Shown here: positions 23,863-61,511 of the stretch, one piece after another | How the letters are laid out: every line of letters starts with the position of its first letter | Position numbering within the stretch: position 1 is the first letter of the stretch | Assembly (NCBI GenBank): GCA_046350615.1 | Contig: JAXMAA010000001.1 | Span: 200,480 to 264,479 of the forward strand | Origin: Candidatus Saccharimonadales bacterium | GTDB taxonomy: Bacteria > Patescibacteriota > Saccharimonadia > Saccharimonadales > UBA7683 | Reading direction: 5' to 3' | Length of the DNA stretch: 64,000 bases | The notes under the pieces: model-generated | What the model was told of the DNA's origin: nothing | The model's input: the letters and a program-made list of their open reading frames with translations, nothing else | Database searches by the model: none | Position numbers and translations under genes: made by a program

Positions 23863-24000
23863 GAGCAGATAACAGCAAATAGATAATAGAGGGTAGACCT
23901 GAGACAATATACACAAAGGCTGTCATCTCGACCTTGTGGAGAGATCTATTCTCGGTTGGCACAAACCCTCCCCTCCGTCATCCTGCACTTGCTTCAGGAT
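23863..24000. repeat. pil inverted-repeat arm B (138 bp)
   Basis: See arm A. Starts 61 nt upstream of the pilM start codon. Confidence 0.95.
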
Positions 24001-31500: not shown

Positions 31501-31822
31501 AGACGCTCCAACTGCTACTAAGTGTGAGGCTTGTGGAGCCCGATCTTTGACTGTTGCCGCCCGCAGAATTAACACTTGCACTGCTTGTGCCCCACTTTGT
31601 TGCGTCAGAAGAGAAGTACCAAGAAACACTTACTATCGTCCCAGCCGGCCCACTACTTGGCGATACGGTCATTGCGCAAGTTGCAGCCGAGGCGGAATTT
31701 GATTTTGCAAGAAACAGCGTACAGCTAAGTACAACAAACACAAATACCAAAAGAGGTTTTTTGGCCAGAAGCGACTGTTGTGTCAGGTTATTAAAAAACT
31801 GTTTGTATTTTTGGTAACTCAC
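28562..31822 (-). CDS. giant secreted protein A (1086 aa), paralog of protein B in its C-terminal domain
   Basis: Signal/anchor LLVFVFVVLSCTLFLAKSNSASAATC. At least four ~85-aa Cys-to-Cys beta-rich modules. Pro/Cys linker, then the shared C-terminal domain ending VSTVELPPVY. Confidence 0.8.
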   Translation of the reverse strand: MSYQKYKQFFNNLTQQSLLAKKPLLVFVFVVLSCTLFLAKSNSASAATCAMTVSPSSGPAGTIVSVSWYFSSDATKWGTSSASVNSAGGNSQRSGSTSLTLSSSWSVSGSFYVGSKYYGDGCSGSFTLTTPTTPPPQTNISCDIWADTTRLNYGGSTMVKWSSSGGSVVSVEGPGLSSPAANNSSGVSTGPLTGTVTYKITVNWTADCTDTVTIGVDEAPPAGTNSCSLAVNLQWDSTYKMTWNSNTTNWLGEGRSKLFRKSTGESSFTEIASGLSLNNNSGRTVSPPDGKYTVYEFRAYDDTGKQYLTCNAGVDLTQTTGEPEVPTGNNCDLKISKEGSKFIAKWKSSAAINSSYKAWLYRGTPTEENKGLALNGQKEISPPTGTSTYVILIYNPTNNAMITSCSAQVTNDGTGSETTAFRFINNGGGIPFGPVSGADCQNGTANTFLHARDYWLTDSSGSRGPITGGGANSIGLKVNGAGWVCEGAGYTNVNATDGRVNNQTINGDAIYIESASVNVAGLSISGIVGKSIVLSRDAQYANRPGLTHTGVGNFPFTLNGLNSLDPNMQYIVTISTTAVQTARANGALVCASPALKPAGSLNDSGCNRSSATFSIVISGSCTSQTCPPTNCNPNDPTDDCPPTNTQQCQALSPAGAIGVPVSKTIFKGQSTLIKWKTIGSGGSSLKAYVESGSEISGAIGETAAGATVKPDATTTYYLATSPTANPAARYCVITIYVELPANRPYLKIDGSDVVSGAAFSTPDPATSCKPTSAAQNASIQTNGFLENRNTWGTSSAQYAAYASGAVGGQEPNTFLAKSGYLRGSGDIKDLLFANVFNASLNEPVGSAGKFYGLSGDAMPVPCINLNPDEIKASAFAEGPAGSFGAIKDVILKAPGPGNVVLTGDLTLSGTTEIAGNKTLVVKGNVTITGDLKYKPLANSAAEVPYLRIIANNIYIERGVNQIDAQLIAYPRVSGDGVIDTCSTVGGAGQWGERLTINGAGNSCNRGRALVVNGSLTARRIIWKSTYGTVGITEGVIDGSCLYSKSSTDCAAEHVIFSAEGYLGLFNNQASQLVSNPVSTVELPPVY

Positions 31823-41040: not shown

Positions 41041-41130
41041 ACTACCCCCAGATTAATGTTGATCTGTACGGCAAAACAAAAAGCCCGCCGCCAGCGATGG
41101 CCGAAGCCACCCATACCCTTTCGAGTATGA

Positions 41131-41175
41131 CCATTCCGAATAGTGCTCTGACGACGAGCTTATTATTCGGAATGG
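41131..41175. repeat. 12-bp perfect inverted repeat in a divergent promoter region
   Basis: ccattccgaata (41131-41142) / tattcggaatgg (41164-41175), 21-nt spacer. Lies between the divergent genes 40321-41040 (-) and 41282-41956 (+). Confidence 0.7.
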
Positions 41176-41281
41176 ATTTTGGTGACCATGCCAATTGCTT
41201 GGTTTAGGTCGTAGTGGTTTGACCACTTACCAATATTATACCCTGTTATTTACTATTTGTGATGGCATATACTCATAGGTA

Positions 41282-42578: not shown

Positions 42579-44148
42579 CACCGCTCGCCAAGAAGAGGAA
42601 GAAACTATTGAGTCACAGATCGGTGCAATCAAAGACCGTGTCAAACAAGACGAACTTAGTGTTGATGAAGGCGCCATATATAAAGACGAGGGCTATACTG
42701 GCTCTATTATCGAACGCCCCTCCCTCGATAGATTACGTGATGCCTGCAAAGAACGGCTCTATGATGTAGTTTACGTGTTCGATTACGGTAGATTTTCGCG
42801 TGATCTAACGAACTTAATGCTAGTCAAAGACGAGATCGAAAAGCGTGAAATTGAAGTCCGATCACTCCACGAACGCATAACCGGTGAGTCAGCAATCGAT
42901 CGCCTGCTCTTGCAAGTTATGGGAGCATTTTTTGAGTACGAGAAAAAGAAGATTGCGCAGCGATTTCACAACGGCAAGATTCAAAAAGCAAAGCGTGGTG
43001 ACATTGTGGGCTATAATCCTCCGTATGGTTACACCTACATCAAAAAGTCCGACAAAACTCCTGGCAAGATAGAAATCAACCCAGCCGAAGCGGCGGTTGT
43101 GAAACAAATATTTGACTGGGTAACCGAAGATAACCTATCCACGTATGCGGTAATCAAGAAACTAGCTGAACATGGGATTCTCCCCCGCAAAAACAAAAGC
43201 AAATACTGGACTCGAGGCCCAATTAAAAGAATCCTCAACAACGAAACCTACATTGGCCTGCATCATTACAACAAGAGTGAGGCCATAGAACCGCGATATA
43301 GACTCAAGCAAACTAAGTACCGCAAGCAGCAGAAAACGGGTCGGCGACAACGACCTCGTGAGCAATGGCTTCCCTGTAAAGTTGATGCAATCATCACGAA
43401 ACAACAGTTTGACGAAGCACAGAAGCAAATGCAACGACAAAAGAAGTATCGCCGCCGCAATATCAGACACCCCTATTTGCTTACCGGCATGATTGAATGC
43501 CCGTGTGGATCAAGACGTAATGGTGACGGACCTGACGGCAAGAAATATTACCGATGCATAATCAGGCACCTGTATTACGACCGAATCAATCGTTGTACTG
43601 TTGGGGGTCTGAACGTTCAAATACTCGACCGACTCGTCTGGTCAGAGATTGAACAACTTCTCACCCGCCCCGATGTCATTCGCTCACATGCCGAACAGTG
43701 GCTCTCAAAGCGCAATGAACACCAAGAACCGCAAGATGATGTAGATAGTAAGCTCAAGCAGCTCAGAGCGGTCGAGAACGAGCAAAGACGCTATGTTGAT
43801 GCATACGGCAAAGGCAGCCTGAGCGAAGAGTTGTTCAACGAAAAAATGGCCGAAACAAATGCTAGTCTCAAGTTGATCAAGAAACAGATACAAGAGTCCT
43901 CGCAAAACAGAGGTGAAGCTGTTAAAATAAGTGTTGATCAAATCGTTGAAATGGCCGTATTCAAAATTGAGAGCCTCGACTTTGCAGCAAAACGCGATAT
44001 TGTCGAACGAGTAATAGACAAAGTAATCGCCGATCCGAAAGAGGTAAAAATATGGGGACACTTACCCGTCAATACAGAAAAGGTAAACTATGAGCCTAAG
44101 CATCGGAATTGTAGGTCTGCCGAATGTTGGGAAGTCGACGTTGTTTAA
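42547..44148 (+). CDS. large serine recombinase (resolvase + recombinase + Zn-ribbon domains)
   Basis: RVAIYARVSTARQ catalytic Ser region, recombinase-domain motifs (YGY...), CPCGS...YYRC Zn ribbon, coiled-coil tail. 533 aa. The last 59 nt overlap ychF. Confidence 0.85.
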   Translation: MKRVAIYARVSTARQEEEETIESQIGAIKDRVKQDELSVDEGAIYKDEGYTGSIIERPSLDRLRDACKERLYDVVYVFDYGRFSRDLTNLMLVKDEIEKREIEVRSLHERITGESAIDRLLLQVMGAFFEYEKKKIAQRFHNGKIQKAKRGDIVGYNPPYGYTYIKKSDKTPGKIEINPAEAAVVKQIFDWVTEDNLSTYAVIKKLAEHGILPRKNKSKYWTRGPIKRILNNETYIGLHHYNKSEAIEPRYRLKQTKYRKQQKTGRRQRPREQWLPCKVDAIITKQQFDEAQKQMQRQKKYRRRNIRHPYLLTGMIECPCGSRRNGDGPDGKKYYRCIIRHLYYDRINRCTVGGLNVQILDRLVWSEIEQLLTRPDVIRSHAEQWLSKRNEHQEPQDDVDSKLKQLRAVENEQRRYVDAYGKGSLSEELFNEKMAETNASLKLIKKQIQESSQNRGEAVKISVDQIVEMAVFKIESLDFAAKRDIVERVIDKVIADPKEVKIWGHLPVNTEKVNYEPKHRNCRSAECWEVDVV

Positions 44149-45190
44149 TGCGTTGACGAAGAATGATATTTTGGCGGCCAATTACCCGTTTGCCACGATT
44201 GAGCCGAATACAGGGATTGTGCCGGTACCAGATGAACGGCTACTGAAATTAAGCGAGCTGTATAATAATGCGCCGATTGTACCGGCCGCAGTTACGTTTG
44301 TTGATATTGCAGGTTTGGTTGCAGGCGCAAGCAAGGGCGAGGGCCTTGGTAATCAATTCTTGGCTAATATTCGCGAGTGTGCCGCCATCGTCCACCTGGT
44401 GCGGGCTTTTGAGAATAATGATATTGTTCACGTTCACGATCGTATTCACCCGAAAGAAGATATTGAAATCATTAACACTGAGTTGATGCTGGCAGATCTG
44501 CAAACGGTGGAGAAAAGTTTGCCTCGAATTGCCAAGGAGGCCAAAGCTAATCCGAAGTTTAAGCCAATTCTCGAGTTGCTTACCCAACTGCAACAGCTCC
44601 TTGAAGCCGGCGATATTATTGGTATCCACGGACTGGTAAAAGATCTGGATCCTGAATCGGAATCCGGGATGACGCTTCGCTCAATGCAGCTGATGAGCGT
44701 AAAACCAGTAATTTATGTGTTCAATATTGATGAGGAAAACTTAACGAACACCGAGAAGCAGCAAGAGCTAACTCAATTAGTTGCCCCCGCCCAAAGTTTG
44801 TTTGTAAACGCCCAATTAGAGGCTGAGCTCAAAGATATGCCCGAAACTGATGCCGCAGAACTATTAGAGAGCTACGGGCAAACCGAATCTGGCCTCACAA
44901 AGGTTATCCACGCCGCCTTCTCTACCCTTAGGCTTCAAAGCTATCTCACAGCTGGTGAAAAAGAGGTGCGAGCCTGGACCATCAAGCAAGGCTCTACCGC
45001 TCCTGAAGCTGCTGGCGTTATTCACGGCGATTTTGAGCGCGGATTCATCGCCGCCGAAGTAGTAACCTGCAACGATCTCCTCACCGCAGGCTCAGTTTCT
45101 GCCGCCAAAAGCGCCGGCAAGGTTCGCACTGAAGGCAAAACCTACATCATGCAACCCGATGACATCGTCGAATTCCGCTTCAATGTATAG
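44090..45190 (+). CDS. ychF: redox-regulated ribosome-binding ATPase YchF
   Basis: GIVGLPNVGKSTLFNALT, DIAGLV.GASKGEGLGNQFL, and the C-terminal TGS domain ...DFERGFIAAEV...GKTYIMQPDDIVEFRFNV. Confidence 0.9.
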   Translation: MSLSIGIVGLPNVGKSTLFNALTKNDILAANYPFATIEPNTGIVPVPDERLLKLSELYNNAPIVPAAVTFVDIAGLVAGASKGEGLGNQFLANIRECAAIVHLVRAFENNDIVHVHDRIHPKEDIEIINTELMLADLQTVEKSLPRIAKEAKANPKFKPILELLTQLQQLLEAGDIIGIHGLVKDLDPESESGMTLRSMQLMSVKPVIYVFNIDEENLTNTEKQQELTQLVAPAQSLFVNAQLEAELKDMPETDAAELLESYGQTESGLTKVIHAAFSTLRLQSYLTAGEKEVRAWTIKQGSTAPEAAGVIHGDFERGFIAAEVVTCNDLLTAGSVSAAKSAGKVRTEGKTYIMQPDDIVEFRFNV

Positions 45191-45195
45191 GCCGA

Positions 45196-45216
45196 GATCT
45201 TAGATCTTAGATCTTA
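45196..45216. repeat. 3 x 7-nt tandem repeat gatctta
   Basis: gatctta gatctta gatctta directly after the ychF stop. Related to the ..agatctaagatct.. motif at 1508-1545, 10826-10860 and 24507-24536. Confidence 0.8.
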
Positions 45217-45671
45217 GAAAATAGTTTATGAAAACAAGCACCCAACAATCCCCGCGAAGCGGGTCAGCTAGCCCCCACCCCCTCGCCAAAACCCGAATAC
45301 CGGAAGTCTGGTTTTTTCGAGTCAAGGAGCAACTTGCCCGAACCCATAGTTCTATAGCATGTGAGGGATGCTTGTCATTGTTGCGACGCGGAAAAACCAG
45401 ACTGGAGGTATATCGAGCTTTTGGTGCTGGGGGTGCAGTTTTTGTTCTCTTTTTGCTGACAAAAAGGAGAGAAAGAAAAACATTCTCCTCACCACTTTTG
45501 ACAGCAAAAGTGGAGCAAAACTGCCAACCAGAACTCACCAAGACGATGTTACGAGCGGTTGGTTCGATGGTTAGGAAGGAAGCTGTATCGCCAGCGATGA
45601 TAGCAACCGGGCCCCTGCCAGAGCCTGTGCTTAATTTGATCGGATACAGGCTATGCCGAAGATGCAAGTTG

Positions 45672-46277
45672 CTATGTCTGGGAGACTTCGAGTTCTAGAA
45701 CCTGGCGGCCTGCTTTATTTGAGCGAGAGGCTACATCAACGAAGCGCGAAGCACGGCGCCAGCGCGCAATTCTGTTGGCAAGATACTGTTCGAGCTGCGG
45801 GTTCATTTTATAAAGTGGCCGTACCACTTCTTGCTCAAGCACAGTCGTTTGGGTAGAGTTCGGATCCACCATATGAGAAGCAGTTCGTCTCCTCTCTTGT
45901 ACTTCGAACATCTTCTGCTGAACCATCTGTGCAAGCAGCCTGAGTTCTCTGCGATGCCACGAACGAAACTGCATCTCACGACCCGCGTAGTAAAAGCGAA
46001 TGGAAGCCATGATAGCTTGTTGGCTAAAGTTTACCTCTTTAATTGACTCGAAGCGAACATCTTCAAAGCTGGAGCGCATCAACTTTTTATCAACCAGAAG
46101 TATCCGCCTTGATGTTACACAGAGAACAGCTGTTCCCGCAGTATAAATGCCGCTGATGACTGCTAAAACTCGCTCATCGGGCATCAGCAAACGAGGCAGC
46201 TCAATCATTTCTCGTTTTGAAAAGAAATTTAATCGAGTTAGTGCTTGTGTTGGGTAACTTGTCACCTGTGCCATCAC
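45672..46277 (-). CDS. bacterial PH-domain (YokE-like) protein
   Basis: LLMPDERVLAVISGIY...VLCVTSRRILLVDKKL...SIKEVNF pattern. 201 aa. Confidence 0.55.
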   Translation of the reverse strand: MMAQVTSYPTQALTRLNFFSKREMIELPRLLMPDERVLAVISGIYTAGTAVLCVTSRRILLVDKKLMRSSFEDVRFESIKEVNFSQQAIMASIRFYYAGREMQFRSWHRRELRLLAQMVQQKMFEVQERRRTASHMVDPNSTQTTVLEQEVVRPLYKMNPQLEQYLANRIARWRRASRFVDVASRSNKAGRQVLELEVSQT

Positions 46278-46347
46278 ATATCCTCCGCTTACAACCTCAG
46301 TATAGGTCCCGTCAGGCTTATGAACTGTGCGCTGTTACACAAAGGGC

Positions 46348-46363
46348 TGTGATTTTTATCACT
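46348..46363. promoter_or_regulatory. CRP/FNR-type operator
   Basis: TGTGA-tttttA-TCACt (consensus TGTGA-N6-TCACA), 59 nt upstream of the Crp-family gene and 71 nt upstream of the divergent gene. Confidence 0.5.
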
Positions 46364-46421
46364 ATAAGCTACTTTTAAATTAGGCTTTGCGCTCGCAGAT
46401 CTGTTCTGTCATAATTAAGCT

Positions 46422-47069
46422 ATGTTAGCCGATCAAGCAGCGCACGATCAGTTAGTGGAGTTTTTTCAAACTGGCACACAGCTCAATTACAAAAAGGGCG
46501 AGTCTATTGTTCATTCCGGCGATGAACCCCGCGGCATTTACTACATTACCAAGGGTTTTGTGAAAGCCTACGCCATTACGAAGTACGGCGAGGAAAACGC
46601 GTTAATCGTTCGTCAGAATGGTGATATCTTCCCTTTAATCTGGGCTTTCACTGGTTTACATCGTGATATCACCTACGAAGCCATGAGCGATACGACCCTA
46701 TGGCGGGTAGCCCGGAGCGAGTTCCTAGCATTCTTAAAAAAGAACGAGCACGTAGTGCCCGTTCTTTTAGATATGGCCATCGAGGCCTACCGCCTCCATT
46801 CCGAACGCGTCAATACCCTCGAGTACCGTACTGTCCGTGAACGCTTGGCCAGCTTTCTGCTCACCCACGTTGACCGCTTTGGCAGCCAAGGCGTGAAAGG
46901 CAAATCCTTAAGCGCCCCGATCCGACGCGCTGACATTGCCGCCTCAATCAATGCCTCCAGAGAAAGCACCAGCCGCGAACTCTCCGCCCTTGCCCGCGGC
47001 GGCTATATCGACCTCACCACCCCATTCATAGAGATCATCAACGAACCAAAACTCCGCGAGTTACTCTAG
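46422..47069 (+). CDS. Crp/Fnr-family transcriptional regulator
   Basis: N-terminal cNMP-binding beta-barrel (GDEPRGIYYITKGFVKAY). C-terminal HTH (RADIAASINASRESTSRELSAL). Confidence 0.8.
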   Translation: MLADQAAHDQLVEFFQTGTQLNYKKGESIVHSGDEPRGIYYITKGFVKAYAITKYGEENALIVRQNGDIFPLIWAFTGLHRDITYEAMSDTTLWRVARSEFLAFLKKNEHVVPVLLDMAIEAYRLHSERVNTLEYRTVRERLASFLLTHVDRFGSQGVKGKSLSAPIRRADIAASINASRESTSRELSALARGGYIDLTTPFIEIINEPKLRELL

Positions 47070-47072
47070 ATC

Positions 47073-47660
47073 TCAGCCCCGGTAGCCAACATTGGCTACT
47101 TTTCCGCGTCGGATAATTAGGTAAACGCTGAATAAGCCGTTCGCCAGCACCCATGTTAAAGGATACAGGATCGTAACAATCGTGTACCTTTCAAGTGCAT
47201 ATAGCGCTAAGCAAAAACGAACAGTATTTACAACATAACTTATAAGTGTTTCCTCTCCTGGCTTATGCCACGACTTTCTAATAGTTGGGATGAATCCCAA
47301 GATATCAATAAGTGATAAGAGAATGACTGACAGCACCGCTTGCTCAGCGAACAGCCAGAGCACAAGCGCCACCATTGAAAGCACTAGAAACATTGTGTCT
47401 GATTTGGTTATCTCTTTGCTGCCTTTTCTCAGACCAATCAAAGCTATGGCAAGACACACAATTGCAGCCGCTAGCGTAACAAATGCTCCCGGTCCCGCCT
47501 TGTCGCTCAGTTGAAGCCCAAATGCAACTGCCGTTACAAACCCCCATATAAACCAGGTAAATATGTGGGGCTTTGTCTTACCCTTAATCGTATCTCTAAT
47601 GTACGGAATATACCCTATAAACGTGAGGGCGACCGCAATTATCCCGACTAGGTTCTTCAT
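47073..47660 (-). CDS. polytopic membrane protein, unassigned
   Basis: 195 aa, about 6 hydrophobic helices. Confidence 0.5.
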   Translation of the reverse strand: MKNLVGIIAVALTFIGYIPYIRDTIKGKTKPHIFTWFIWGFVTAVAFGLQLSDKAGPGAFVTLAAAIVCLAIALIGLRKGSKEITKSDTMFLVLSMVALVLWLFAEQAVLSVILLSLIDILGFIPTIRKSWHKPGEETLISYVVNTVRFCLALYALERYTIVTILYPLTWVLANGLFSVYLIIRRGKVANVGYRG

Positions 47661-47683
47661 ACGTTATTTATAATAGCAGAGTA

Positions 47684-48490
47684 CTAATGCATACTTATTT
47701 TTAGTAAATAGAAGCGCTCTAGATTGCCTTTTTCGCCGGCTACCGAGCTATCGGATTTTTTAAGTAGTACAAATCCATTCTGTTTAACCCATTGCTCAAA
47801 GTTTTGCAGGATATCGCGGCGCTGGGCGTTATTTTTCACCACACCCTTATTAAGCTGATCTTTACCGGCTTCAAACTGGGGTTTAAGCATCGCTACGATC
47901 TGACCATTTTTTGTAATAAGCTTGGCTACACTCTCAAGTACTTTAGTCATGGAGATAAAACTGACATCAATTAATGCAATATCCGCTTTATCCATAAGGT
48001 ATAAATGCTTGTCATCCTGAACTTGTTTCAGGATCTGATCTGGCTGCGCGTTGGATCCTGAAACAAGTTCAGGATGACAGTGGACGTTACGAATGTCAGT
48101 TTTTTCATGCAGCTCTACTCGCTCGTCCCCGCGCAGCCGCGGATGCAGCTGATTGGTGCCGACATCCACAGCAATTACCTTTTTAGCACCGTGTTGCAAC
48201 GCGTAATCGGTAAAACCGCCGGTGCTAGAACCAACATCGAGCACTATCTTACCTTTGAAGTCTAAGTTTAGCGCTTGGGCTACGGAAGCCAACTTCAAAG
48301 CAGCTCGTGAAACATATTGTTCTTTCGCCCCGAATTCGATTTTAGATTCCTCAGATACAAAGTAACCCGGTTTTTTAATTAGCTTGCCATCAACTTTCAC
48401 TTGGCCGAGACGAATATAGCTCTCCGCCTGGCTGCGGGTTGGCACCAATTGTTTTTGAACTAATAAATGATCGAGCCGATGCTTATTCAT
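47684..48490 (-). CDS. tlyA: TlyA-family rRNA 2'-O-methyltransferase carrying an in-frame hairpin-repeat insertion
   Basis: S4 domain (RLDHLLVQKQLVPTRSQAESYIRLGQVKVDG), SAM motif LDVGSSTGGFTD, DVSFIS motif. Start set at Met 48490. Confidence 0.85.
   Translation of the reverse strand: MNKHRLDHLLVQKQLVPTRSQAESYIRLGQVKVDGKLIKKPGYFVSEESKIEFGAKEQYVSRAALKLASVAQALNLDFKGKIVLDVGSSTGGFTDYALQHGAKKVIAVDVGTNQLHPRLRGDERVELHEKTDIRNVHCHPELVSGSNAQPDQILKQVQDDKHLYLMDKADIALIDVSFISMTKVLESVAKLITKNGQIVAMLKPQFEAGKDQLNKGVVKNNAQRRDILQNFEQWVKQNGFVLLKKSDSSVAGEKGNLERFYLLKISMH
48011..48078. repeat. 68-bp inverted-pair hairpin element inside tlyA
   Basis: gtcatcctgaacttgtttcaggatc-18 nt-gatcctgaaacaagttcaggatgac. Same 25+18+25 architecture as 7855-7922. 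Translated as CHPELVSGSNAQPDQILKQVQDD. Confidence 0.9.
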
Positions 48491-48737
48491 ATGTCCCGTT
48501 ACAAGCCGTGCCAATTGCTATAATCGCCAATGCCGTAAATGCAATAAATACGGCAAACGGCACACTTATCCATCCAAGTACACGAAGCCAGGTATTGGTA
48601 CGTTTTATAAGGTTTCTTGAAATGAACACAATGAAAAGTATTGTTAAAACAAAGATCACCAATTGTGCTATATTAGCGTTTCGCATATCGGTTCGATTGC
48701 AAGGACCAGTTCCTAAAAAAGCAATGTAGTTTAACAT
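48483..48737 (-). CDS. small membrane protein (84 aa)
   Basis: Two hydrophobic helices. 8-nt overlap with tlyA. Confidence 0.45.
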   Translation of the reverse strand: MLNYIAFLGTGPCNRTDMRNANIAQLVIFVLTILFIVFISRNLIKRTNTWLRVLGWISVPFAVFIAFTALAIIAIGTACNGTYE

Positions 48738-48786
48738 CTCAAACTATTGTAGCAGCTAAATAATATAATATGCGCCAGATTGAGGC

Positions 48787-49032
48787 TCATAGATTCTTAT
48801 ACGTCTTTTCATTGCGATTCGTGATGCGCCTTATCTCAAAATGATTCTCATCCTGAAAATATACCACCCGTATTCTGCCGACCCTTGCTCGAAATAAGCC
48901 ACCCTGGTTCTTGAGTGCTTTAATATCTATATTTGAGACCTGGCCTGCCGCCAGCTTCCTAAGCATCGCTAGTACTTTTTCACGCTCTTTTGGAGATAGA
49001 CGCAGTAAAAATTTAGTTACTTTGTCGGCCAT
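48787..49032 (-). CDS. RelE/ParE-family toxin
   Basis: ...GGLFRARVGRIRVVYFQDENHFEIRRITNRNEKTY pattern. 81 aa. Overlaps the upstream antitoxin gene by 20 nt. Confidence 0.65.
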   Translation of the reverse strand: MADKVTKFLLRLSPKEREKVLAMLRKLAAGQVSNIDIKALKNQGGLFRARVGRIRVVYFQDENHFEIRRITNRNEKTYKNL

Positions 49033-49258
49033 TTTCGTGATCTTGCAATTTCTGGAGTGCCGTAATTAAATCGGCAACCGGCACGCCCCTCTCAGAAATC
49101 TCGGTAAAGTCCAAATCCCAGACAGCATCCTTAACAGGCTCTATATTGAAAACCGGCTTTGAACGCTTAATAACCGTAAAGGTTACCCCATTGGCAACTG
49201 CCTCTATAACTGCCGGGAAGTCAGTTCGTAACTGTTTTAAACTAATTGTTGTCTTCAT
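49013..49258 (-). CDS. Phd/YefM-family antitoxin
   Basis: MKTTISLKQLRTDFPAVIEAVANGVTFTVIKRSKPVFNI is a typical Phd/YefM N-terminus. Confidence 0.7.
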   Translation of the reverse strand: MKTTISLKQLRTDFPAVIEAVANGVTFTVIKRSKPVFNIEPVKDAVWDLDFTEISERGVPVADLITALQKLQDHENGRQSN

Positions 49259-49328
49259 GTTAGGATTTTATCTAAAGTTTAACTTAAAGTCAACTAAATA
49301 TACCCCGTTCTCAAAATCAGCTCGTCCT

Positions 49329-49450
49329 GTCATCCTGAACTCGTTTCAGGATCTCCTTCGTCTGCCAGGGTTTTTCTGGATTCTCAGTCGAGCTGAGAAT
49401 GACAGAAATATGCTCTCGAGGGTTGTCATTCTCGACCTGATCGAGAATCC
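49329..49450. repeat. three hairpin repeat units
   Basis: 49329-49353 gtcatcctgaactcgtttcaggatc; 49378-49403 ggattctcagtcgagctgagaatgac; 49425-49450 gtcattctcgacctgatcgagaatcc. Confidence 0.85.
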
Positions 49451-49585
49451 AGTTATTCAAAATCATCAGTTAAATCCTTCCACGTGGGGTTATCTTTTTC
49501 GATTAGCTCAATTTTCCATATGCGATTCCAGTGCTTCAACTGCTTCTCGCGATAGATAGCTTCTTCGACACTGTTCGTTTCCTCA

Positions 49586-50170
49586 AAATAAACTTCCCAC
49601 GACCTCACGGTCGGGGTATTGGCTCCTTCAAACTAACCGAAGGTTAGTTTGCCCACTATCCTGTTTGCCTTGGTTTTCTATGTAGCTTCGTATAGTGCTT
49701 TCGTTTATGCCAACTGTGCTAACAAAGTAGCCTTCCGACCAAATACTGTCTGTGCCCCAGTAGATCTTTTTTAGAAATGGTAGCTCGGCCTTCATGCCTC
49801 TTGCAGTGTTTGCCTTAATTATACCCACCACCTTACCTACGGACCACGTTGGTGGAATGGAAACGAGCATGTGTATGTGGTCTTTGTCGGTATTGGCAGT
49901 TTTGAAGATGACTTCAGGGTAGTGGTCCTGGATTTCTTTGATACGAGATGTAATGAAGGCCTTAACGCCTTCGTTGATGATACTGCGTCGGTATTTGGTC
50001 GGAAACACTATATGGTAGTCACAGAGGAATACACAGTGGGATTTATGACGATAGAGCGTTGGCATTACCTACTCATGATAGTCGGTGCAGGCCGAAAGCG
50101 GCAAACAAGCTAGTGGGTTAGGGCATACTGCCCACGACCTTACGGTCGGGGTACTGTGCGCCTGGAATAG
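49586..50170 (-). mobile_element. IS200/IS605-family element, copy 2
   Basis: Same 585-bp block as 671-1255 including both subterminal hairpins. Probable true limits 49587-50165. Confidence 0.9.
49628..50065 (-). CDS. tnpA: IS200-family Y1 transposase TnpA (identical to 713-1150)
   Basis: 145-aa product identical to copy 1. Confidence 0.9.
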   Translation of the reverse strand: MPTLYRHKSHCVFLCDYHIVFPTKYRRSIINEGVKAFITSRIKEIQDHYPEVIFKTANTDKDHIHMLVSIPPTWSVGKVVGIIKANTARGMKAELPFLKKIYWGTDSIWSEGYFVSTVGINESTIRSYIENQGKQDSGQTNLRLV

Positions 50171-50342
50171 ACGAGCCTGTGAACATCGTATTTACTTGTG
50201 AAGCTCTGATGATCTGCAGATTTATGTTGATCCGCTCTTTTAGTAAGATCATTTGTAACACCAATGTATAGTGTGCCGTTTTTCTTACTAGACAAGATAT
50301 AGATGTAATATGTATTCACGGAGATTATTGTACAGTTTTTCT

Positions 50343-50368
50343 GGATTCTCAGTCGAGCTGAGAATGAC
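50343..50368. repeat. hairpin repeat unit (part of a 36-nt direct repeat with 49371-49406)
   Basis: tttttctggattctcagtcgagctgagaatgacaga occurs at 49371-49406 and 50336-50371, on both sides of the GIY-YIG gene. Confidence 0.85.
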
Positions 50369-50378
50369 AGAGAAGTGC

Positions 50379-50936
50379 CTACTTCTTGCGCTCGCGGTAG
50401 CTACCGTCTTCAGTGCTGACCGAGATGATATCACCTTGTTTGATAAAGGCTGGCACCTTAACAATTAAGCCCGTTTCAACGGTTGCGTCTTTGGTGATGG
50501 CATTGGCGGTATCACCTTTGACTACATCTTCAGCATAGGTTACCTCAAGATAGACGTTCTTCGGCAGCTCAAGGTTAATAACCTGACCATCAAAAAATTG
50601 GAGACCAGCGGAATCGCCCTCTTTCAGATAGAATTTAGCATCCTCAGCAATATCAGTTGCAATCGAAAACTGCTCAAAGCTTTCCGGATCCATAAAGTGA
50701 TACTCTTGGTCAGTGTACAGATACTGTACTGTTTGCGTGTTCACACTGGCTGGCTCAATCTTGTCGGCACCTTTAAAGGTTTTGGCCAGTACATTGCCAT
50801 CAATCAAGTTCTTCAAGCGCACATTTACAATAGAGCCGCCGCGACCCATCACCTTTTGACTATATTCGATAACTTTAAATGGCTTGCCGTCTAGTTGAAC
50901 CACAGTGCCTTTTTTAAGGTCAGTTGGACTTAACAT
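50379..50936 (-). CDS. efp: translation elongation factor P
   Basis: MLSPTDLKKGTVVQLDGKPFKVIEYSQKVMGRGGSIVNVRLKNL... 185 aa. Confidence 0.9.
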   Translation of the reverse strand: MLSPTDLKKGTVVQLDGKPFKVIEYSQKVMGRGGSIVNVRLKNLIDGNVLAKTFKGADKIEPASVNTQTVQYLYTDQEYHFMDPESFEQFSIATDIAEDAKFYLKEGDSAGLQFFDGQVINLELPKNVYLEVTYAEDVVKGDTANAITKDATVETGLIVKVPAFIKQGDIISVSTEDGSYRERKK

Positions 50937-50979
50937 AGATTATTGATTTTAGATTATGGATTATTGCATTAATCCAATA

Positions 50980-51369
50980 TCACAGACGCTCCTTATTCGC
51001 CTTTATTAATCCGTACAACAGCTTTTGTGTTAATGTTGTTTGATGCAGAAGTCTCTGCAAACCGGTTGCTTTTAGAAACGTGACATCCGAAGCTATGTAA
51101 GCCTGAGTTTCAACTTCTACCAAAGAACCGTTAGCAATGTAGTAAAATTGATTCTTCTCTCTTGCGCTTGCCCTGCCAAAACCCTCTGCGATGTTACTTG
51201 GTACTGATACCGCCGCACGTTTCATCTGAGATGATAACCCGTATTTCTCATCTATCGGAAACTCACTTGTTAACGCGTACACCATCTTTGCGAGTTTTCT
51301 CGCTTCCTGCCAGACAATTAAGTCCGTATATTTGGCAATTGTGCGTTCTTTATATTCTTGATGCCCCAT
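50980..51369 (-). CDS. four-helix-bundle protein (23S rRNA intervening-sequence protein family)
   Basis: LIVWQEARKLAKMVY...QMKRAAVSVPSNIAEGFGR signature. Confidence 0.75.
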   Translation of the reverse strand: MGHQEYKERTIAKYTDLIVWQEARKLAKMVYALTSEFPIDEKYGLSSQMKRAAVSVPSNIAEGFGRASAREKNQFYYIANGSLVEVETQAYIASDVTFLKATGLQRLLHQTTLTQKLLYGLIKANKERL

Positions 51370-51419
51370 ATCAATTGCCCCTTCTATAATCGATAATCAA
51401 AAATCTATAATCAGCAGCT

Positions 51420-51650
51420 TTAGCCCTGTGCTACGAATGGCAAGAGTGCTAAATGGCGGGCTCGCTTTACAGCCGTTGCTAGAGCTCGTTGCTGCTTAGC
51501 CGATAGGCCAGTCTTGCTAGCTGGCTCTATCTGACCAAACTGGTTAATAAACTTCTGGATGGTTTTAACATCCTTGTAATCAAAATATGTAATGTCTGGT
51601 TTTCTTTTTCCGTTCATAATTATCCTTTTGTCATATTTATCACGTAGCAT
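51420..51650 (-). CDS. rpsR: 30S ribosomal protein S18
   Basis: ...[49 protein letters not shown]. The true start may be the internal Met (MNGKRK). Confidence 0.85.
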
Positions 51651-51738
51651 TGATCATTGACCAGAGATGTTTCGTTGAACATGTTACATGTTACTTGCTA
51701 CATCTATGCTACATGCAAATTGTTACATGTTAAATTTA

Positions 51739-52206
51739 CTAAAATGGTATTTCGCTTAAATCAATTGGTTTGTCGTCGATGTCTTCAATCACGACATCAT
51801 CGTTCTTTTTAGAATCGCTAGAGCTACTTGAGCTTGAGCTGCTAGAAGAGCCGCCACTAAAGCCACCACCATCGTTGCCACCGCCCACAAAGTTGAAATC
51901 TTCTACAATCACCTCGACCTTGCTACGCTTTTGACCGTCTTGATCCCAGCTACGCTGATCGAGTCGACCGGAAACTAAGATAGGACGACCTTTTTGCATG
52001 TACTGCGCAATAACTTCACCGGTCCGCCCCCAAGCAACACAGTCAATAAAGCTTACTTGCTCCTGGGTGGATCCATCCTGGCCCTTCCAAGTACGGTTTA
52101 CTGCGAGGGCAAAGTTAGTAACACTTTGCCCGTTTGGCGTCTGACGCGTTTCAGGATCACGCGTCAGGTTACCCATCAAAATTACTTTGTTAAACCCTTT
52201 TGTCAT
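51739..52206 (-). CDS. ssb: single-stranded DNA-binding protein
   Basis: NKVILMGNLTRDPETRQTPNGQSVTNFALAV OB fold, Gly/Ser-rich linker, acidic tip DLSEIPF. Confidence 0.9.
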   Translation of the reverse strand: MTKGFNKVILMGNLTRDPETRQTPNGQSVTNFALAVNRTWKGQDGSTQEQVSFIDCVAWGRTGEVIAQYMQKGRPILVSGRLDQRSWDQDGQKRSKVEVIVEDFNFVGGGNDGGGFSGGSSSSSSSSSSSDSKKNDDVVIEDIDDKPIDLSEIPF

Positions 52207-52264
52207 ATGTGGCTCCTTTCAGCCGCAGAAAAATGGAATATGAAAAATGAAAAAAGCTGTAATT

Positions 52265-52327
52265 GTCATCCCGAACTTGATTCGGTATCCGATAATTGAT
52301 TAGATTCTGAATCAAGTTCAGAATGAC
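52265..52327. repeat. 63-bp inverted-pair hairpin element (variant stems)
   Basis: gtcatcccgaacttgattcggtatc ... gattctgaatcaagttcagaatgac. Confidence 0.8.
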
Positions 52328-52337
52328 AAACCCGCCG

Positions 52338-52365
52338 TATTTCTTATTTCTTATTTCGTATTTCA
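52338..52365. repeat. 4 x 7-nt tandem repeat tatttc(t/g/a)
   Basis: tatttct tatttct tatttcg tatttca between the rpsF stop and ssb. Confidence 0.8.
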
Positions 52366-52375
52366 TGCAGTTACT

Positions 52376-52717
52376 TTACTCCTCGCTTACACTCTCATCG
52401 TCAGATTTTGCCTCACCAGCAACTGGCGCCTTCAAGTCCTTCTCTACCATCAGGTAACGAACAGCTTCGTCGGTAATATTGAGCAAGCTCTGCACCTTGT
52501 TGGCATTTGCTGGTGCAATTGAAACCTCAAACAGCACATACACCGCAAAATCTTGTTTTTTAATTGGGTAGGCAAGCTTCTTTTTACCCCAGTTGTCTTT
52601 AGAGACAACCTTACCACCGTTATCGGTAATGATTTTTTCCACCTTCGCCAGTGGTTTTTCCAGATCAATTTCAAGATCCGGGTGTAGTAGTACGGTTAAT
52701 TCGTACAATTTCTCCAT
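52376..52717 (-). CDS. rpsF: 30S ribosomal protein S6
   Basis: YELTVLLHPDLE...KDNWGKKKLAYPIKKQDFAVYVLFE. Acidic C-terminus. Confidence 0.9.
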   Translation of the reverse strand: MEKLYELTVLLHPDLEIDLEKPLAKVEKIITDNGGKVVSKDNWGKKKLAYPIKKQDFAVYVLFEVSIAPANANKVQSLLNITDEAVRYLMVEKDLKAPVAGEAKSDDESVSEE

Positions 52718-57923: not shown

Positions 57924-58544
57924 CTACACTTTTCGGGCAATTAAGCGGGCGCTGGTGAAGCCCGTTGCATTTCCGGTTTCCTCGTAGTACAGAATCTCCC
58001 AGTCAGCGTAGAGCTGTTTTAGTTCATCTGGTTGCAAGAGAAATGTGAAGTAACCTGGTGCTATGCGCGGATCGGTATGAATTATAGGCTGCTCAATGTA
58101 CGAGCTAATGACATTAATACCGCCCTTTTCTGTTACACGCTGAATATTTTTAATGGATTGATACGCTTCTTCGTTTTTAAGAAAATGCAGCACCATCTCG
58201 CAAACCACTAGGTCGAAGCTGCCTTCTGGAAAATCTGGCAAGGTCTGCTCAAGTACTACTAAGTCCGGCTGTTTTTTAGCCACTTTTTGTAGATATGCAA
58301 CTGCTTCGGGATTTGGGTCAGTCGCCACAACCTTCCAGCTCTTTTTAAGCAAAACCTTTACCTCGTTACCAAAACCAGCGCCAATATCCAATGCTTTGCC
58401 AGCCTTTTGAATATACGAAAGTGCCTTACTAAATGTTGCTCGCTGGCCGCCATAGTAGTAAAAGCCGCCAGATTCAAACTTATTGCGCTGCGTTCTCCCA
58501 AACAAATTTCTGGTTACAATGAACTTCTCAATTTTTTCTTTCAT
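57924..58544 (-). CDS. class I SAM-dependent methyltransferase (TehB-like)
   Basis: ALDIGAGFGNEV motif I, DLVVCEMVLHFL motif. 206 aa. Confidence 0.7.
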   Translation of the reverse strand: MKEKIEKFIVTRNLFGRTQRNKFESGGFYYYGGQRATFSKALSYIQKAGKALDIGAGFGNEVKVLLKKSWKVVATDPNPEAVAYLQKVAKKQPDLVVLEQTLPDFPEGSFDLVVCEMVLHFLKNEEAYQSIKNIQRVTEKGGINVISSYIEQPIIHTDPRIAPGYFTFLLQPDELKQLYADWEILYYEETGNATGFTSARLIARKV

Positions 58545-58637
58545 GATTTTCCTTTTTAATCCCTGTCGAGTGAGTTGGCTAATACCTCAAGCATTGCGAA
58601 CCACCCTATATATTTTCACCGCATTTTTGTCTTTCGA

Positions 58638-58662
58638 GATCCTGAAACAAGTTCAGGATGAC
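58638..58662. repeat. hairpin repeat unit
   Basis: gatcctgaaacaagttcaggatgac, identical to the right unit of 7855-7922 and 48011-48078. Confidence 0.85.
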
Positions 58663-58682
58663 AGATTGTGCCGCTTGCTGAA

Positions 58683-60674
58683 TTAACGGCCGGAATCTGC
58701 TTGGGGTTTTGGTTTTTGACTGCTTTGGCCGTTTGGCCCTATGACGTTTACAACTGGAATGAGGACGGGGCTGCGGCGAGTGTGTTCGTACAGGTAATGG
58801 CCAATGTGGTCTTTTAGTTCTTGCTTGAAGCGATCGAGGTCCACTCGAGTGAAGCGCTGTGAGGCGGCTCTTTTAAGCTCGTTTCTGAGGCCATCCATGA
58901 GCTCGGTGTTGTCTCGAATATAGATGAAACCACGAGTGATGATATCAGGACTCGTGAGCAAACGACCAGTTTTACGATCTACTGTAAGCATCACCACTAC
59001 CATACCTTCTTCGCTCATCAACAAACGATCCTTGGCTACCAAGCCAGGAACAACCGCCCCGGTTTGATCTACCAAAACTGCGCCAGCGGGCGCCTCTTGG
59101 CCTTCATACATCTTGCCGTCTTTATCGAATTCAACGATTGAACCATTTCGAGCAAGTATCACCTGCTCTCGACTCATACCCGCCTCAATAGCTATGTCTT
59201 TGTGGTAAGTGCGATCAAGCATACTTCCATGGTGTGGTAGTAACCATTTTGGTCGTGTGAGCTCAATCATTTCTCGGTGCTCATCACGACGAGCGTGACC
59301 AGAAACGTGTAGAGGACCACAGCCGTCAACATCTGTCGATACGGCCCTAAATAAGTGCACGCCCAACTCCGCAAGGTCAGCACCAATCTGTTGGTAGCGG
59401 ATTTCGTTGCCAGGAATTGGTGTAGAGCTAATCACTACGGTATCTTCGCTCTTAAGCTTAATGTGTTTGTGCTCGCCAATACTCATACGCTGCAACGCCG
59501 CGTTTGGCTCTCCCTGGCCACCAGTACAGACCACCACCAGCTGATCGTCTTTGACATTTGGCGCTTCGCGCATTGGCACAACAGTTCCTTTTGGAATCTT
59601 GAGGTTGCCCAGACGCACTGCCAGCTCTGCCACCCACATCATAGAACGGCCGTCAAATGCTACCTTTTTGCCTGCAGCAGCGGCGGAGTTAATAATCATC
59701 TGAATGCGATTCATGTTAGTCGAGAAGATTGCCACAAAAATTCTGCCGGGAGCCCGAGCAAAAATGTCATCAAAGCTTTTTTGTAGCGTATGTTCAGTCT
59801 GTGTTCTGCCAACGGCATCAGTGTAGCTGCTTTCGCTCATCAAGAGCAGAACACCCTCGTCACCGGCCTGTCTTAGACGAGCGATGTCTGATGGCTGATG
59901 ATCAAGTGGCTCAGGATCAAGCCTAAAATCGCCCGTGTTGATAATCCTTCCAACAGGTGTATCTATGATAACTGCCGAGGCGTCAGGAATGGAGTGAGTG
60001 ATCCGTATACATTCAATTGTAAACGGCCCAATCACTAGGCGCTGGTGATTATCCATATGCATCTCAACCAACTCTGGTTCAAAATCGATACCGTTTTCTT
60101 GTGAGTTCTCAAACTGCTTACCAACCATACCAACAGTAAAGTGACTGCCGTAAATTGGTGCCGGATACTTTGGCACTACATACGGCAAGCCACCTGTGTG
60201 GTCCATGTGGCCATGCGTGATCACATAGCCGCGAATTTTATCTTTAATTGTTTCTAAATAATTAGTGGCAGGGATAGCGAAGTTAACACCGGGTAGATCA
60301 ACTGAGAGATCAAAACCGCAATCTACCACAATGGCATCGTTGCCGTATTCAATCACCGACATGTTCTTCTCACCGATACCCTCTAGGCCTCCGAGGATGG
60401 TAATGCGAAGTCGCTCAGGTTGCAGCTTTGGAATAGTCTCAACTTGATGTTCGTGATGCTTTTCAAACACATTCCACCGATCAACCGCCTTATCAGCTGT
60501 TTCAAAATTACGTCGACCGGCGCGCATTGCCTCGCCCCGATTGGTTTGCATTTGACTGATCTGCACCCGCTTTTGCGGCTGCCCATTTTGCCTACTCTTA
60601 TTTTCGTACTTATTCACCTTCTCCCGTCTTTGTTCGGGCTCTTTTGGCTGCATTCTTGGTTTTACCATATTCAT
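58683..60674 (-). CDS. rnj: ribonuclease J (metallo-beta-lactamase/beta-CASP) with basic N-terminal extension
   Basis: ITHGHMDHTGG motif, beta-CASP region, C-terminal domain. 663 aa. Confidence 0.85.
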   Translation of the reverse strand: MNMVKPRMQPKEPEQRREKVNKYENKSRQNGQPQKRVQISQMQTNRGEAMRAGRRNFETADKAVDRWNVFEKHHEHQVETIPKLQPERLRITILGGLEGIGEKNMSVIEYGNDAIVVDCGFDLSVDLPGVNFAIPATNYLETIKDKIRGYVITHGHMDHTGGLPYVVPKYPAPIYGSHFTVGMVGKQFENSQENGIDFEPELVEMHMDNHQRLVIGPFTIECIRITHSIPDASAVIIDTPVGRIINTGDFRLDPEPLDHQPSDIARLRQAGDEGVLLLMSESSYTDAVGRTQTEHTLQKSFDDIFARAPGRIFVAIFSTNMNRIQMIINSAAAAGKKVAFDGRSMMWVAELAVRLGNLKIPKGTVVPMREAPNVKDDQLVVVCTGGQGEPNAALQRMSIGEHKHIKLKSEDTVVISSTPIPGNEIRYQQIGADLAELGVHLFRAVSTDVDGCGPLHVSGHARRDEHREMIELTRPKWLLPHHGSMLDRTYHKDIAIEAGMSREQVILARNGSIVEFDKDGKMYEGQEAPAGAVLVDQTGAVVPGLVAKDRLLMSEEGMVVVMLTVDRKTGRLLTSPDIITRGFIYIRDNTELMDGLRNELKRAASQRFTRVDLDRFKQELKDHIGHYLYEHTRRSPVLIPVVNVIGPNGQSSQKPKPQADSGR

Positions 60675-60812
60675 TTACTCCTTTGTCGTAAACTATTTAT
60701 CATTTTGCATGTTTCATTGATCATAGATGTAACATTTAACATGTAGTTGCTCGAGCCGAAAGGCTGATACATGTTACATGAAAAATCTATGCTACTTGTT
60801 ACATGAGACATG

Positions 60813-61511
60813 CTAAATCTTCTCCAATATAGCTGGAATTCGGCTGAAGTCGTCCAGAAGTGTTTGACGCATGCCACCGTTATACAGTGCCGCTGCCGGA
60901 TGAAACAGCGGTAGGACAACCAAACTGTAGGTACTCTGCTGTGTTGATGCCTCCGCTGCTCGTTCTTCGTATTGTCCATACGCATCACTCTGCTGCTCGG
61001 CCTCACCTTGCATACCACCCGCAGTTTGGCTCCCCATCTTGCCTCCTGATTCATTCCTCTTGATTCTAATCCTTTTTGGCTCACCGTGGATGGCACTAAT
61101 TTTTTGGCTCGGCAGAAAATATTCCATGCTGTGCCGACCTAATGTTACTACCAACTCTGGTTGTATAACATCGAGTTGACGCACCAAGTATGGCCAAAAA
61201 GCCTTCTTCTCATCCGGTTCAGGGTCACGATTATTCGGTGGCCGATACTTCACAATATTGGTGATATAAATATCTTCGCGTTTCATCCCGATACTTTCCA
61301 GCATCTCGTTTAAGAACTTGCCAGCTGCACCCACAAAAGGCTTCCCCTGTTCATCTTCATTCTTACCTGGCGCTTCACCAATAAAAACAATGTCTGCATC
61401 AGGGTTCCCATCCGCAAACACCAACTGCGTCGCCCCATCACGCAGCTCAGGACAAACATTGTTTTTCACAATATCATCCGCAATTTTCTGTAGGTCATCT
61501 TTTTTACTCAT
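60813..61511 (-). CDS. udg: family 4 uracil-DNA glycosylase with an internal low-complexity insertion
   Basis: VFIGEAPGKNEDEQGKPFVGAAGKFLNEML and ...LPLFHPAAALY motifs. About 45 extra residues lie between the HG and HP motifs. Confidence 0.8.
   Translation of the reverse strand: MSKKDDLQKIADDIVKNNVCPELRDGATQLVFADGNPDADIVFIGEAPGKNEDEQGKPFVGAAGKFLNEMLESIGMKREDIYITNIVKYRPPNNRDPEPDEKKAFWPYLVRQLDVIQPELVVTLGRHSMEYFLPSQKISAIHGEPKRIRIKRNESGGKMGSQTAGGMQGEAEQQSDAYGQYEERAAEASTQQSTYSLVVLPLFHPAAALYNGGMRQTLLDDFSRIPAILEKI

Follow-up and report, generated by a model that had tools for sequence, protein, structure and literature searches.

How can a perfect palindrome lie, translated, inside a housekeeping gene, and why do its arms stay intact while the rest of the gene diverges? 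This question is raised by the tlyA locus in a stretch of 64,000 nucleotides (nt) from a Candidatus Saccharimonadales bacterium; we call the whole stretch the window, and coordinates are window positions unless another contig is named. The gene occupies 47684-48514 on the minus strand, with the annotated start at 48490, and encodes a protein with an S4 domain and an FtsJ-like 2'-O-methyltransferase domain. At 48010-48079 on the same strand it contains an inverted doublet of 26-18-26 nt that is translated in frame as CHPELVSGSNAQPDQILKQVQDD. The explanation that we consider probable is that two NTS-like units of the SRM (Ssn-related motif) type, inverted relative to each other, make up this element, that it goes back to one old insertion, that its arms are maintained as DNA, and that tlyA alleles have been exchanged. 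In many bacteria, SRM hairpins stand on either side of genes for small single-domain GIY-YIG nucleases, which cut them as single-stranded DNA (ssDNA); NTS is CGTCATTCCCGCGMAVGCGGGAATCYRG, with the layout NTS-ssnA-NTS, and SsnA is a site-specific ssDNA nuclease of about 94 amino acids (aa) (Chenal et al., Nat Commun 2025, PMC11893778). The host studied here belongs to the candidate phyla radiation, a group without described repeats of the SRM kind.

The palindromic doublet and its host gene

The segment 48011-48078 consists of GTCATCCTGAACTTGTTTCAGGATC, 18 nt, and the exact reverse complement of the former, and full (100%) complementarity reaches 26 nt in each arm. Arm 1 (48010-48035, plus strand) is the unit TGTCATCCTGAACTTGTTTCAGGATC, of the form TGTCAT-hairpin-GGATC, which contains its own 8-bp hairpin ATCCTGAA/TTCAGGAT, and arm 2 (48054-48079, minus strand) is the same unit inverted. 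The 18-nt spacer (48036-48053) is unique to the tlyA copy, and its end recurs in the inserts that tlyA has in five further lineages. The 70-nt doublet folds at -46.8 kcal/mol as RNA (z -8.7) and at -29 kcal/mol as DNA (z -10.5). The preliminary description of this locus had pointed to a 25+18+25 design shared with an intergenic doublet at 7855-7922, and this is correct: the arms of the two copies are identical and both spacers measure 18 nt, with unrelated sequences, the perfect arms in tlyA being 26 nt long.

The unit is dispersed over the window. A further intergenic doublet lies at 16865-16933 (arms 92% complementary, spacer 19 nt). Solitary units are found at 58638-58662 (minus strand; intergenic, exact match) and, with one mismatch, at 49328-49353 (plus strand), in an SRM cluster downstream of the remnant of an ssnA-like gene. 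The 25-mer GTCATCCTGAACTTGTTTCAGGATC occurs ten times in the window at three or fewer mismatches, with none expected from 100 shuffles, and a hairpin-aware scan finds 13 GTCAT units with perfect hairpins, whose stem variants (CCTGAA, CCCGGA, CCCAGC, TCTCAG, TCTCGA, and TCTGAA) are compensatory. These sequences form nine SRM sites in 64 kb. Only two of the nine overlap an open reading frame (ORF), one of these ORFs being spurious, against 87% expected (p=2e-5), and tlyA is the only real gene that contains a site.

An origin of the insert as a native protein loop with a chance palindrome, or as an assembly artefact, can practically be dismissed. Many homologs do have loops of similar length with no recognizable repeats, but the arms in tlyA are identical to dispersed intergenic repeats for which zero chance matches are expected. 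The possibility of an artefact, mentioned in the preliminary description, is countered by independent assemblies with a homologous in-frame insert (Logan SRR28413663, SRR28640819, SRR31724235, and DRR438489; NCBI GCA_020050275.1).

The host protein is a member of the TlyA family by the TIGR00478 model (219 bits against a cut-off of 185.8), by the Pfam S4 and FtsJ domains, and by phmmer matches to 3hp7, 3opn, and 7s0s. Its score with the equivalog model NF049952 is below the cut-off (211.8 against 250) because the insert splits the profile match, an effect that matters for the annotation of TlyA. In other bacteria, TlyA determines susceptibility to capreomycin and viomycin. The motifs DVGSSTGGFTD, DVSFIS, and KPQFEAG are intact, and the motifs for S-adenosylmethionine binding and catalysis are invariant. 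The translation runs ...NVH CHPELVSGSNAQPDQILKQVQDD KHLY... between EKTDIR and DVSFIS, which confirms the earlier placement of the element between TDIRN and DVSFIS, and within the annotated protein of 268 aa (P0001, a TlyA of a Candidatus Saccharimonadales genome, 100% identical) CHPELVSGSNAQPDQILKQVQDD takes up residues 138-160. The insert adds about 23 residues compared with PDB entry 3hp7 (query 142-179 against chain residues 140-154) and 27 residues (81 nt) compared with the closest allele.

An AlphaFold2 model built on a 76-sequence alignment has an overall pLDDT (predicted local confidence) of 90.3 and a pTM (predicted fold score) of 0.84. In this model residues 136-138 and 163-165 are the strands of a beta-hairpin, and the 22-23 repeat-encoded residues form its tip, with pLDDT of about 58-66. 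A Foldseek search with the model retrieves 3opn (TM score 0.83, root-mean-square deviation 2.2 Å), 5kyg (TM score 0.80), and 7s0s_B (E 1.7e-18). Structure prediction, which had been proposed as a check, thus places the 23-aa insert in a low-confidence surface loop at the beta-hairpin tip of a TlyA fold that is predicted to be intact. Whichever the orientation of the element, only one of three frames through it is free of stops, and therefore surviving intragenic copies must read HPELVSGS...ILKQVQDD. Finally, tlyA of the window and that of the nearest genome, L001, are 94% identical at the aa level and 82% at the nt level, and are therefore under purifying selection. Survival of the insert is explained by these features together: the single stop-free frame, the surface hairpin tip, the intact motifs and fold, and purifying selection.

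The peptide itself was recognized earlier in two small ORFs, and ILKQVQDD is indeed present at 16772-16954 (minus strand) and 58483-58686 (plus strand); SRM peptides of the HPELVSGS and ILKQVQDD types and their relatives account for many spurious small ORFs. A search for other proteins with the SRM peptide, made with an underpowered duplicated 48-aa query, returned four short hypothetical ORFs and did not recover TlyA itself. At gathering thresholds over the whole window, Rfam has no family at the tlyA element and finds four tRNAs and a LOOT RNA elsewhere. Literature searches yielded no paper for the exact 25-mer GTCATCCTGAACTTGTTTCAGGATC, nothing relevant on palindromic repeats in Saccharibacteria, and only irrelevant papers on eukaryotic transposable elements for GIY-YIG combined with miniature inverted elements and transposase.

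Age of the insert and probable exchange of tlyA alleles

A natural first suggestion is a recent, lineage-private hop of a 68-nt palindrome similar to Rickettsia palindromic elements (RPEs) or transposable elements of the miniature inverted-repeat type (MITEs), the perfect arms being a sign of youth. The arms are indeed complementary at 26 of 26 positions and identical to intergenic copies, and the closest protein, P0007 from L001, has a short loop with no insert while being 93% identical outside the loop. However, the six insert alleles that we compared (the window, L081, L082, L165, L166, and L170; about 70% nt identity) share the insert at an identical codon and phase, with an 18-nt spacer in each, and with homologous flanks NV(R/H)C...(K/T)HxY. 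They also have in common a non-canonical 3' end of the spacer, (C/T)CAGAT(C/G)A in the sense of tlyA, which has the form CAGATCA in the window. The spacer has diverged down to 65% identity, and therefore the insert is as old as the alleles themselves; in addition, the arms of L166 are also perfect. Based on these data we consider a recent hop rather unlikely, and the alignments show the six inserts to have, in all appearance, one old origin. The preliminary description was right that the reading frame is kept; a simple recent insertion of 68 nt does not agree with the net difference of 81 nt from the closest allele, and thus no clean insertion of 68-69 nt is observed.

The two arms have evolved differently from everything around them. 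Among the six alleles, the pairwise nt identity is 92.8% in the arms, 65.4% in the spacer, and 70.1% in the rest of the gene. Where two alleles have the same residue, the codon is identical in 188 of 207 pairs (91%) in the arms, compared with 1217 of 2796 (44%) elsewhere (p<1e-4): in 10,000 random draws of 16 columns with full conservation the maximum was 0.675, and none reached the arm value. Changes from the consensus per 52 arm positions number zero in the window and L166, two in each of L081, L165, and L170, and six in L082. L081 and L082 also have perfect copies of the unit between genes; its sequence is thus kept from species to species, and the arms in tlyA stay at this consensus as the spacer decays. 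Most likely, the arms are maintained not by selection on the peptide but by repeated gene conversion over short tracts, with the many identical SRM copies as donors, by pressure from a cognate Ssn nuclease, or by both. Conservation of arms at the nt level inside a coding sequence, with the spacer and the host gene drifting, is an unusual signature that can be used for testing homogenization by gene conversion against protection by a nuclease.

A second group of inserts, in L167, L168, L083, and L084, has the SRM variant CCTGAGCyTGTCGAAGG, an equal total length, and the same downstream junction; it may represent a second insertion or a diverged form of the first one. In L167, the variant in the insert differs from the SRM that flanks the adjacent ssnA.

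Although the insert is old, the nearest genome does not have it. The insert-bearing homologs are at most 85% identical to the window protein with the loop excluded, and the loop region, 99 nt in the window and 18 nt in L001, has no clean junction. The simplest reading of the alignments is that the long, SRM-bearing alleles and the short ones would both be old and would have been swapped by recombination between related lineages, hence the absence of the insert from L001. Comparison of codons for identical residues between the window and L001 over 44090-52717 gives 0.56 for tlyA, 0.72 for EF-P, and 0.82-0.91 for SSB, Crp, bPH, YchF, and S6. The interval between EF-P and Crp is also rearranged: the window has the ssnA remnant, an IS200 element, a toxin-antitoxin-like pair, and a membrane ORF, and L001 has none of these. 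The codon comparison suggests allele replacement within the SRM-rich interval from EF-P to Crp. In a neighbor-joining tree of 120 TlyA proteins, the insert-bearing alleles are scattered among short-loop ones, which fits allele exchange. Recurrent independent insertion, our first reading of this tree, was dropped in view of the shared junctions and spacer and the outlying synonymous divergence of tlyA. An unusually high diversity of genes next to dRS3/NTS is an older observation (PMC11893778), and the divergence pattern of tlyA matches it.

Association with GIY-YIG genes and comparison with known repeats

The contigs of the insert-bearing proteins P0002 and P0003 (L081 and L082) have, directly between EF-P and tlyA, the unit TGTCATCCTGAACTTGTTTCAGGATC, an ORF of about 100 aa, and the unit GATCCTGAAACAAGTTCAGGATGACA. 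In both contigs the ORF encodes a single-domain GIY-YIG protein (PF01541). The 26-nt unit is found on both sides of the GIY-YIG ORF, with the TGTCAT ends outward and directly upstream of tlyA, in L081, L082, L165, and L167; the cassettes flanked by exact units cover positions 2262-2649 of L081 and 770-1168 of L082, and further ones are present in L167 and L165. The contig of L170 ends inside the GIY-YIG gene, with the distal unit in the same place as in L165 and L167. In the latter two the distal unit lies 4 nt upstream of the tlyA start. More generally, an SRM unit is observed 4-13 nt upstream of the tlyA start in L165 (340-367), L167 (about 588-613), L170 (about 194-219), and L082 (1142-1168), where it occupies the position expected for a ribosome-binding site.

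Besides the loci with the exact unit, a layout of hairpin, gene, and hairpin with genome-specific stems is seen in seven others (L007, L008, L013, L020, L075, L091, and L114); in all, GTCAT units surround GIY-YIG genes in at least 12 loci. The PF01541 domain is also found in the L084 homolog of the ssnA-like gene, and in this contig a GIY-YIG remnant has the exact Neisseria-type NTS consensus CGTCATTCCCGCGCAGGCGGGAATCCAG on either side, at 7488-7515 and 7831-7858. L084 also contains TCTCAG-type SRMs around a second GIY-YIG gene.

In the window, a single-domain ssnA-like GIY-YIG gene (49456-50319, minus strand) is interrupted by IS200; in silico excision joins 50319-50171 and 49585-49456 into an ORF that reads ...YYIYILSSKKNGTLYIGVTNDL...HRLV|EETNSVEEAIYREKQLKHWNRIWKIELIEKDNPTWKDL. 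TCTCAG-type units stand on both sides of this ORF, at 50341-50369 and 49424-49452: the former, on the 5' side, is TGTCATTCTCAGCTCGACTGAGAATCCAG on the minus strand, and the 3' side carries two inverted units of the TCTCAG/TCTCGA type at 49376-49452. At 49146-49559 (plus strand), SRM units together with the antisense strand of the ssnA remnant account for nearly all of a 137-aa ORF, which annotation would probably list as a hypothetical protein but which is spurious. Overall, a GIY-YIG gene lies no more than 1.5 kb away in eight of the 11 tlyA loci whose insert is of the SRM type. Long loops have such a neighbor more often than short ones (odds ratio 9.8, p=2.5e-4), and this association is suggestive only, the sample being partly selected and phylogenetically non-independent.

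The tlyA unit has the hallmark of the SRM type, a TGTCAT leader followed by the ATCCTGAA/TTCAGGAT hairpin and C within an oriented hairpin of 20-50 nt. Like NTS and other SRMs, it is an oriented hairpin of about 25-30 nt with an (H)GTCAT leader and an ATC(YRG) tail, in the form TGTCATCCTGAACTTGTTTCAGGATC(TAG); its copies are numerous, lie mostly between genes, and come in several variants within a genome; and the motif stands on both sides of single-domain GIY-YIG genes of about 95-100 aa, in the related L084 as the exact NTS. The differences are a stem that is richer in A+T and outside the published search string, a host from Patescibacteria/Saccharimonadales, a group with no occurrence in PMC11893778, and the form of the tlyA copy, a perfect inverted doublet in a housekeeping gene that is translated and conserved at synonymous sites. 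The published work on NTS gives only 2% as intragenic in N. meningitidis and does not mention in-frame copies (PMC11893778). By analogy with these systems, an Ssn-type nuclease is a candidate partner of the tlyA unit.

The proposed sequence of events begins with an SRM-ssnA-SRM cassette that adjoins tlyA in this group of Saccharimonadales. A doublet of two SRM units would then have entered the connecting loop between beta3 and beta4 of the methyltransferase domain. Given the architecture of the cassette, the 70-nt element looks like two cassette ends without the gene, and we infer that the doublet derives from the neighboring cassette.

Several observations weigh against parts of this explanation. 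The net difference of 81 nt from L001 means that 9 and 20 nt flanking the doublet are also new or remodeled. The shared position might also reflect several separate insertions of a single master doublet at one favored target. No target-site duplication or flanking direct repeat was found at the three doublets, a result that also speaks against a recent hop. Covariation between arms in 11 inserts does not exceed the controls (79.7% paired compared with 77.7% after shuffling; 13 of 500 shuffles were as high), and therefore we claim conservation of sequence and not selection on structure. The published degenerate string HGTCWYN(0-2)YYVSBRHN(0-5)WNVSBRGN(0-2)RNCYNB is not matched by the unit in tlyA or by other CCTGAA-type units. 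Membership of the GIY-YIG proteins in the Ssn clade (CDD cd10448, GIY-YIG_unchar_3) is putative: their nearest solved relatives are UPF0213 only (1zg2, E 6e-5), Pfam assigns GIY-YIG only, and NCBIfam has no specific model for them. The ssnA-like gene of the window is inactivated and flanked by another SRM variant (TCTCAG type), and the gene of L166 is likewise flanked by another variant; because of the state and flanks of the local gene, a cognate nuclease for the CCTGAA variant is not seen within 64 kb. Finally, we know of no mechanism by which a hydrolytic GIY-YIG nuclease, which cuts and does not rejoin, could insert DNA.

The mismatch with the degenerate string concerns a search tool derived from 29 genomes and not a definition; its matches are limited to CGTCATCCCAGCGAAGGCTGGGATCCAG at 24133-24160 (minus strand), the sole such unit in the window, and to 7488-7515 and 7831-7858 of L084. 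By its architecture and gene association, the unit is best filed as SRM-like despite this mismatch.

Similarity to other repeat families is partial. RPEs are elements of about 100-150 bp that form ten families in Rickettsia, nearly half of them intragenic (PMC10969869). The RPE likeness noted in the preliminary description holds in that the tlyA element is a dispersed palindrome, in frame in a housekeeping gene, and translated into an added loop peptide that is compatible with fold and function. It probably does not extend to identity, which we take to be that of an inverted NTS/SRM-type pair: the element is 70 nt long, is found in another host, is the sole intragenic site of nine in the window, and is tied to GIY-YIG genes.

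Repetitive extragenic palindromes (REPs), their doublets (REPINs), and bacterial interspersed mosaic elements are also hairpin units that occur singly or as inverted doublets, with a small nuclease-type gene flanked by its own repeats. REPs are extragenic by definition. A REPIN mobilized by a Y1 (HUH) transposase would have the same architecture, and the window has two Y1_Tnp genes, one of them 1.1 kb from tlyA, that could be taken for REP-associated transposases (RAYTs). We consider this highly improbable. The Y1 protein scores 124.8 bits with the IS200 transposase model NF033573 and 19.9 with the RAYT model NF047646 (cut-off 80), and the two IS copies, identical and 585 bp long, have unrelated subterminal hairpins CCCACGACCTCACGGTCGGGG. 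One copy (49586-50170, minus strand; Y1 ORF 49628-50065) splits the ssnA-like gene, and the other (671-1255, minus strand; Y1 ORF 713-1150) abuts the 3' end of an NrdR-like ORF (370-732). The GTCAT units, for their part, flank GIY-YIG genes in the loci listed above, and the partner is a GIY-YIG nuclease instead of a Y1 HUH transposase. The REP/RAYT candidate was therefore rejected, the 145-aa ORFs beside the repeats being Y1 genes of an ordinary IS200 with its own hairpins.

With MITEs (Correia/NEMIS, ERIC) the element shares terminal inverted repeats, a missing internal gene, and occasional in-frame intragenic copies. A MITE was rejected as well: the inverted ends are present, but the three doublets have no duplication, the parent cassette encodes a GIY-YIG nuclease and not a transposase, and both supposed terminal repeats are autonomous hairpins that are also found alone. 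The tlyA element is thus probably not an RPE and is not a REPIN; the best class for it is that of SRM/NTS-like doublets, as a variant outside the published motif in a phylum outside that work.

Variation of the TlyA loop, possible roles, and further features of the window

By the segment that separates EKTDIR from DVSFIS, the 120 best homologs can be sorted into three classes: no insert (proteins of about 239 aa), repeat-type inserts (C/R)HPE..(E/S)GS...Q(D/N)D, and other inserts of about 20 aa. In a set of 164 tlyA loci, taken from genomes in GTDB and from metagenomes, the loop ranges from 13 to 70 aa: 112 loci have one of 13-14 aa and about 48 have one of 20-70 aa, the long sequences being very heterogeneous. 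Repeat-free segments of equivalent length, which according to the preliminary description would count against an insertion, do occur in many of these homologs; the closest allele (93% aa identity) has none. Hairpin-forming DNA (z < -3) is present in 20 of 46 distinct long loops, compared with two of 92 control segments of equal length from the same genes. In addition to SRM doublets, these include palindromes of other kinds in the loops of L064, L075, L020, L024, and L074. Conserved Asp-Phe codons are part of the hairpin arms in L114 and L007, whose loops look like local inverted duplications anchored on these codons. The long loops that are not palindromic are plausibly decayed versions of hairpin loops. 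Such a hypervariable, repeatedly invaded loop in the catalytic domain of TlyA is a natural experiment in insertion tolerance.

These data also bear on a possible function of the element in cis. The doublet could be kept for its DNA or RNA hairpin, or for a pair of Ssn sites, one per strand, and affect recombination and transformation, ssDNA cleavage, translation of tlyA, or stability of its mRNA; another possibility is that the 23-aa loop changes how the ribosome is recognized. The synonymous-site conservation of the arms, the very stable mRNA hairpin, the excess of synonymous divergence in tlyA over the flanking genes, the SRM units 4-13 nt before the tlyA start in four genomes, and the frequency of hairpin DNA in long loops all agree with it, as does the modulation of transformation by NTS/SsnA in Neisseria, where diversity is raised near dRS3/NTS (PMC11893778). 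However, the 112 Saccharimonadia loci with a 13-14 aa loop have no insert, and the nearest relative is among them; since the majority of tlyA genes lack the element, it is dispensable. The arms are decaying in L082, L169, and L083, their covariation is not significant, and gene conversion from abundant identical copies explains their conservation with no function. On balance we regard a function of this kind as unlikely, though worth keeping in mind, and prefer the old insertion with arms maintained as DNA.

A broader, speculative extension of the latter, which we rate as doubtful, is that the Ssn/SRM system itself generates and curates coding insertions and allele exchange. It would seed palindromes into permissive loops of neighboring genes, keep their arms through a dual constraint of coding and nuclease sites, and promote or gate recombination. 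If this is true, one mechanism would account for the in-frame palindromes of the Rickettsia type, the diversity near dRS3/NTS in Neisseria, and the hypervariable TlyA loop. For the in-frame palindrome of tlyA, which is of a kind known but unexplained in Rickettsia, the cassettes with Ssn-type GIY-YIG genes offer a concrete origin and a candidate partner enzyme.

SRM units are also combined with other repeats. A composite repeat at 7800-7922, 16865-16990, and 23920-24001 consists of GTCATCTCGA...GAGAGATC, a conserved 30-nt linker TATTCTCGGTTGGCACAAACCCTCCCCTCC, and an SRM unit or doublet, and recalls mosaic elements built of several repeat types. Simple repeats of the CTAAGAACTAAG type adjoin SRM units in intergenic regions at 1507-1540, 10818-10865, and 24509-24542. 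The exact 25-mer GTCATCCTGAACTTGTTTCAGGATC is also found on 22 viral contigs from IMG/VR (L171-L192) with G+C contents of 0.28-0.71, none of which has a GIY-YIG match.

Other features of the window are separate from the SRM units. The LOOT RNA (RF03000) lies at 41096-41210 on the minus strand and matches the Rfam model over its full length with 70.9 bits. Two intergenic regions, 51682-51745 and 60695-60828, contain TGTTACATGTTAC-rich direct and inverted repeats with 51-nt arms that are 73% complementary, which could represent an operator or promoter element common to the two regions. The adjacent ORFs 24537-28028 and 28562-31822 (minus strand; 1163 and 1086 aa) share segments of 60-116 nt at 72-85% identity and are therefore tandem paralogs.

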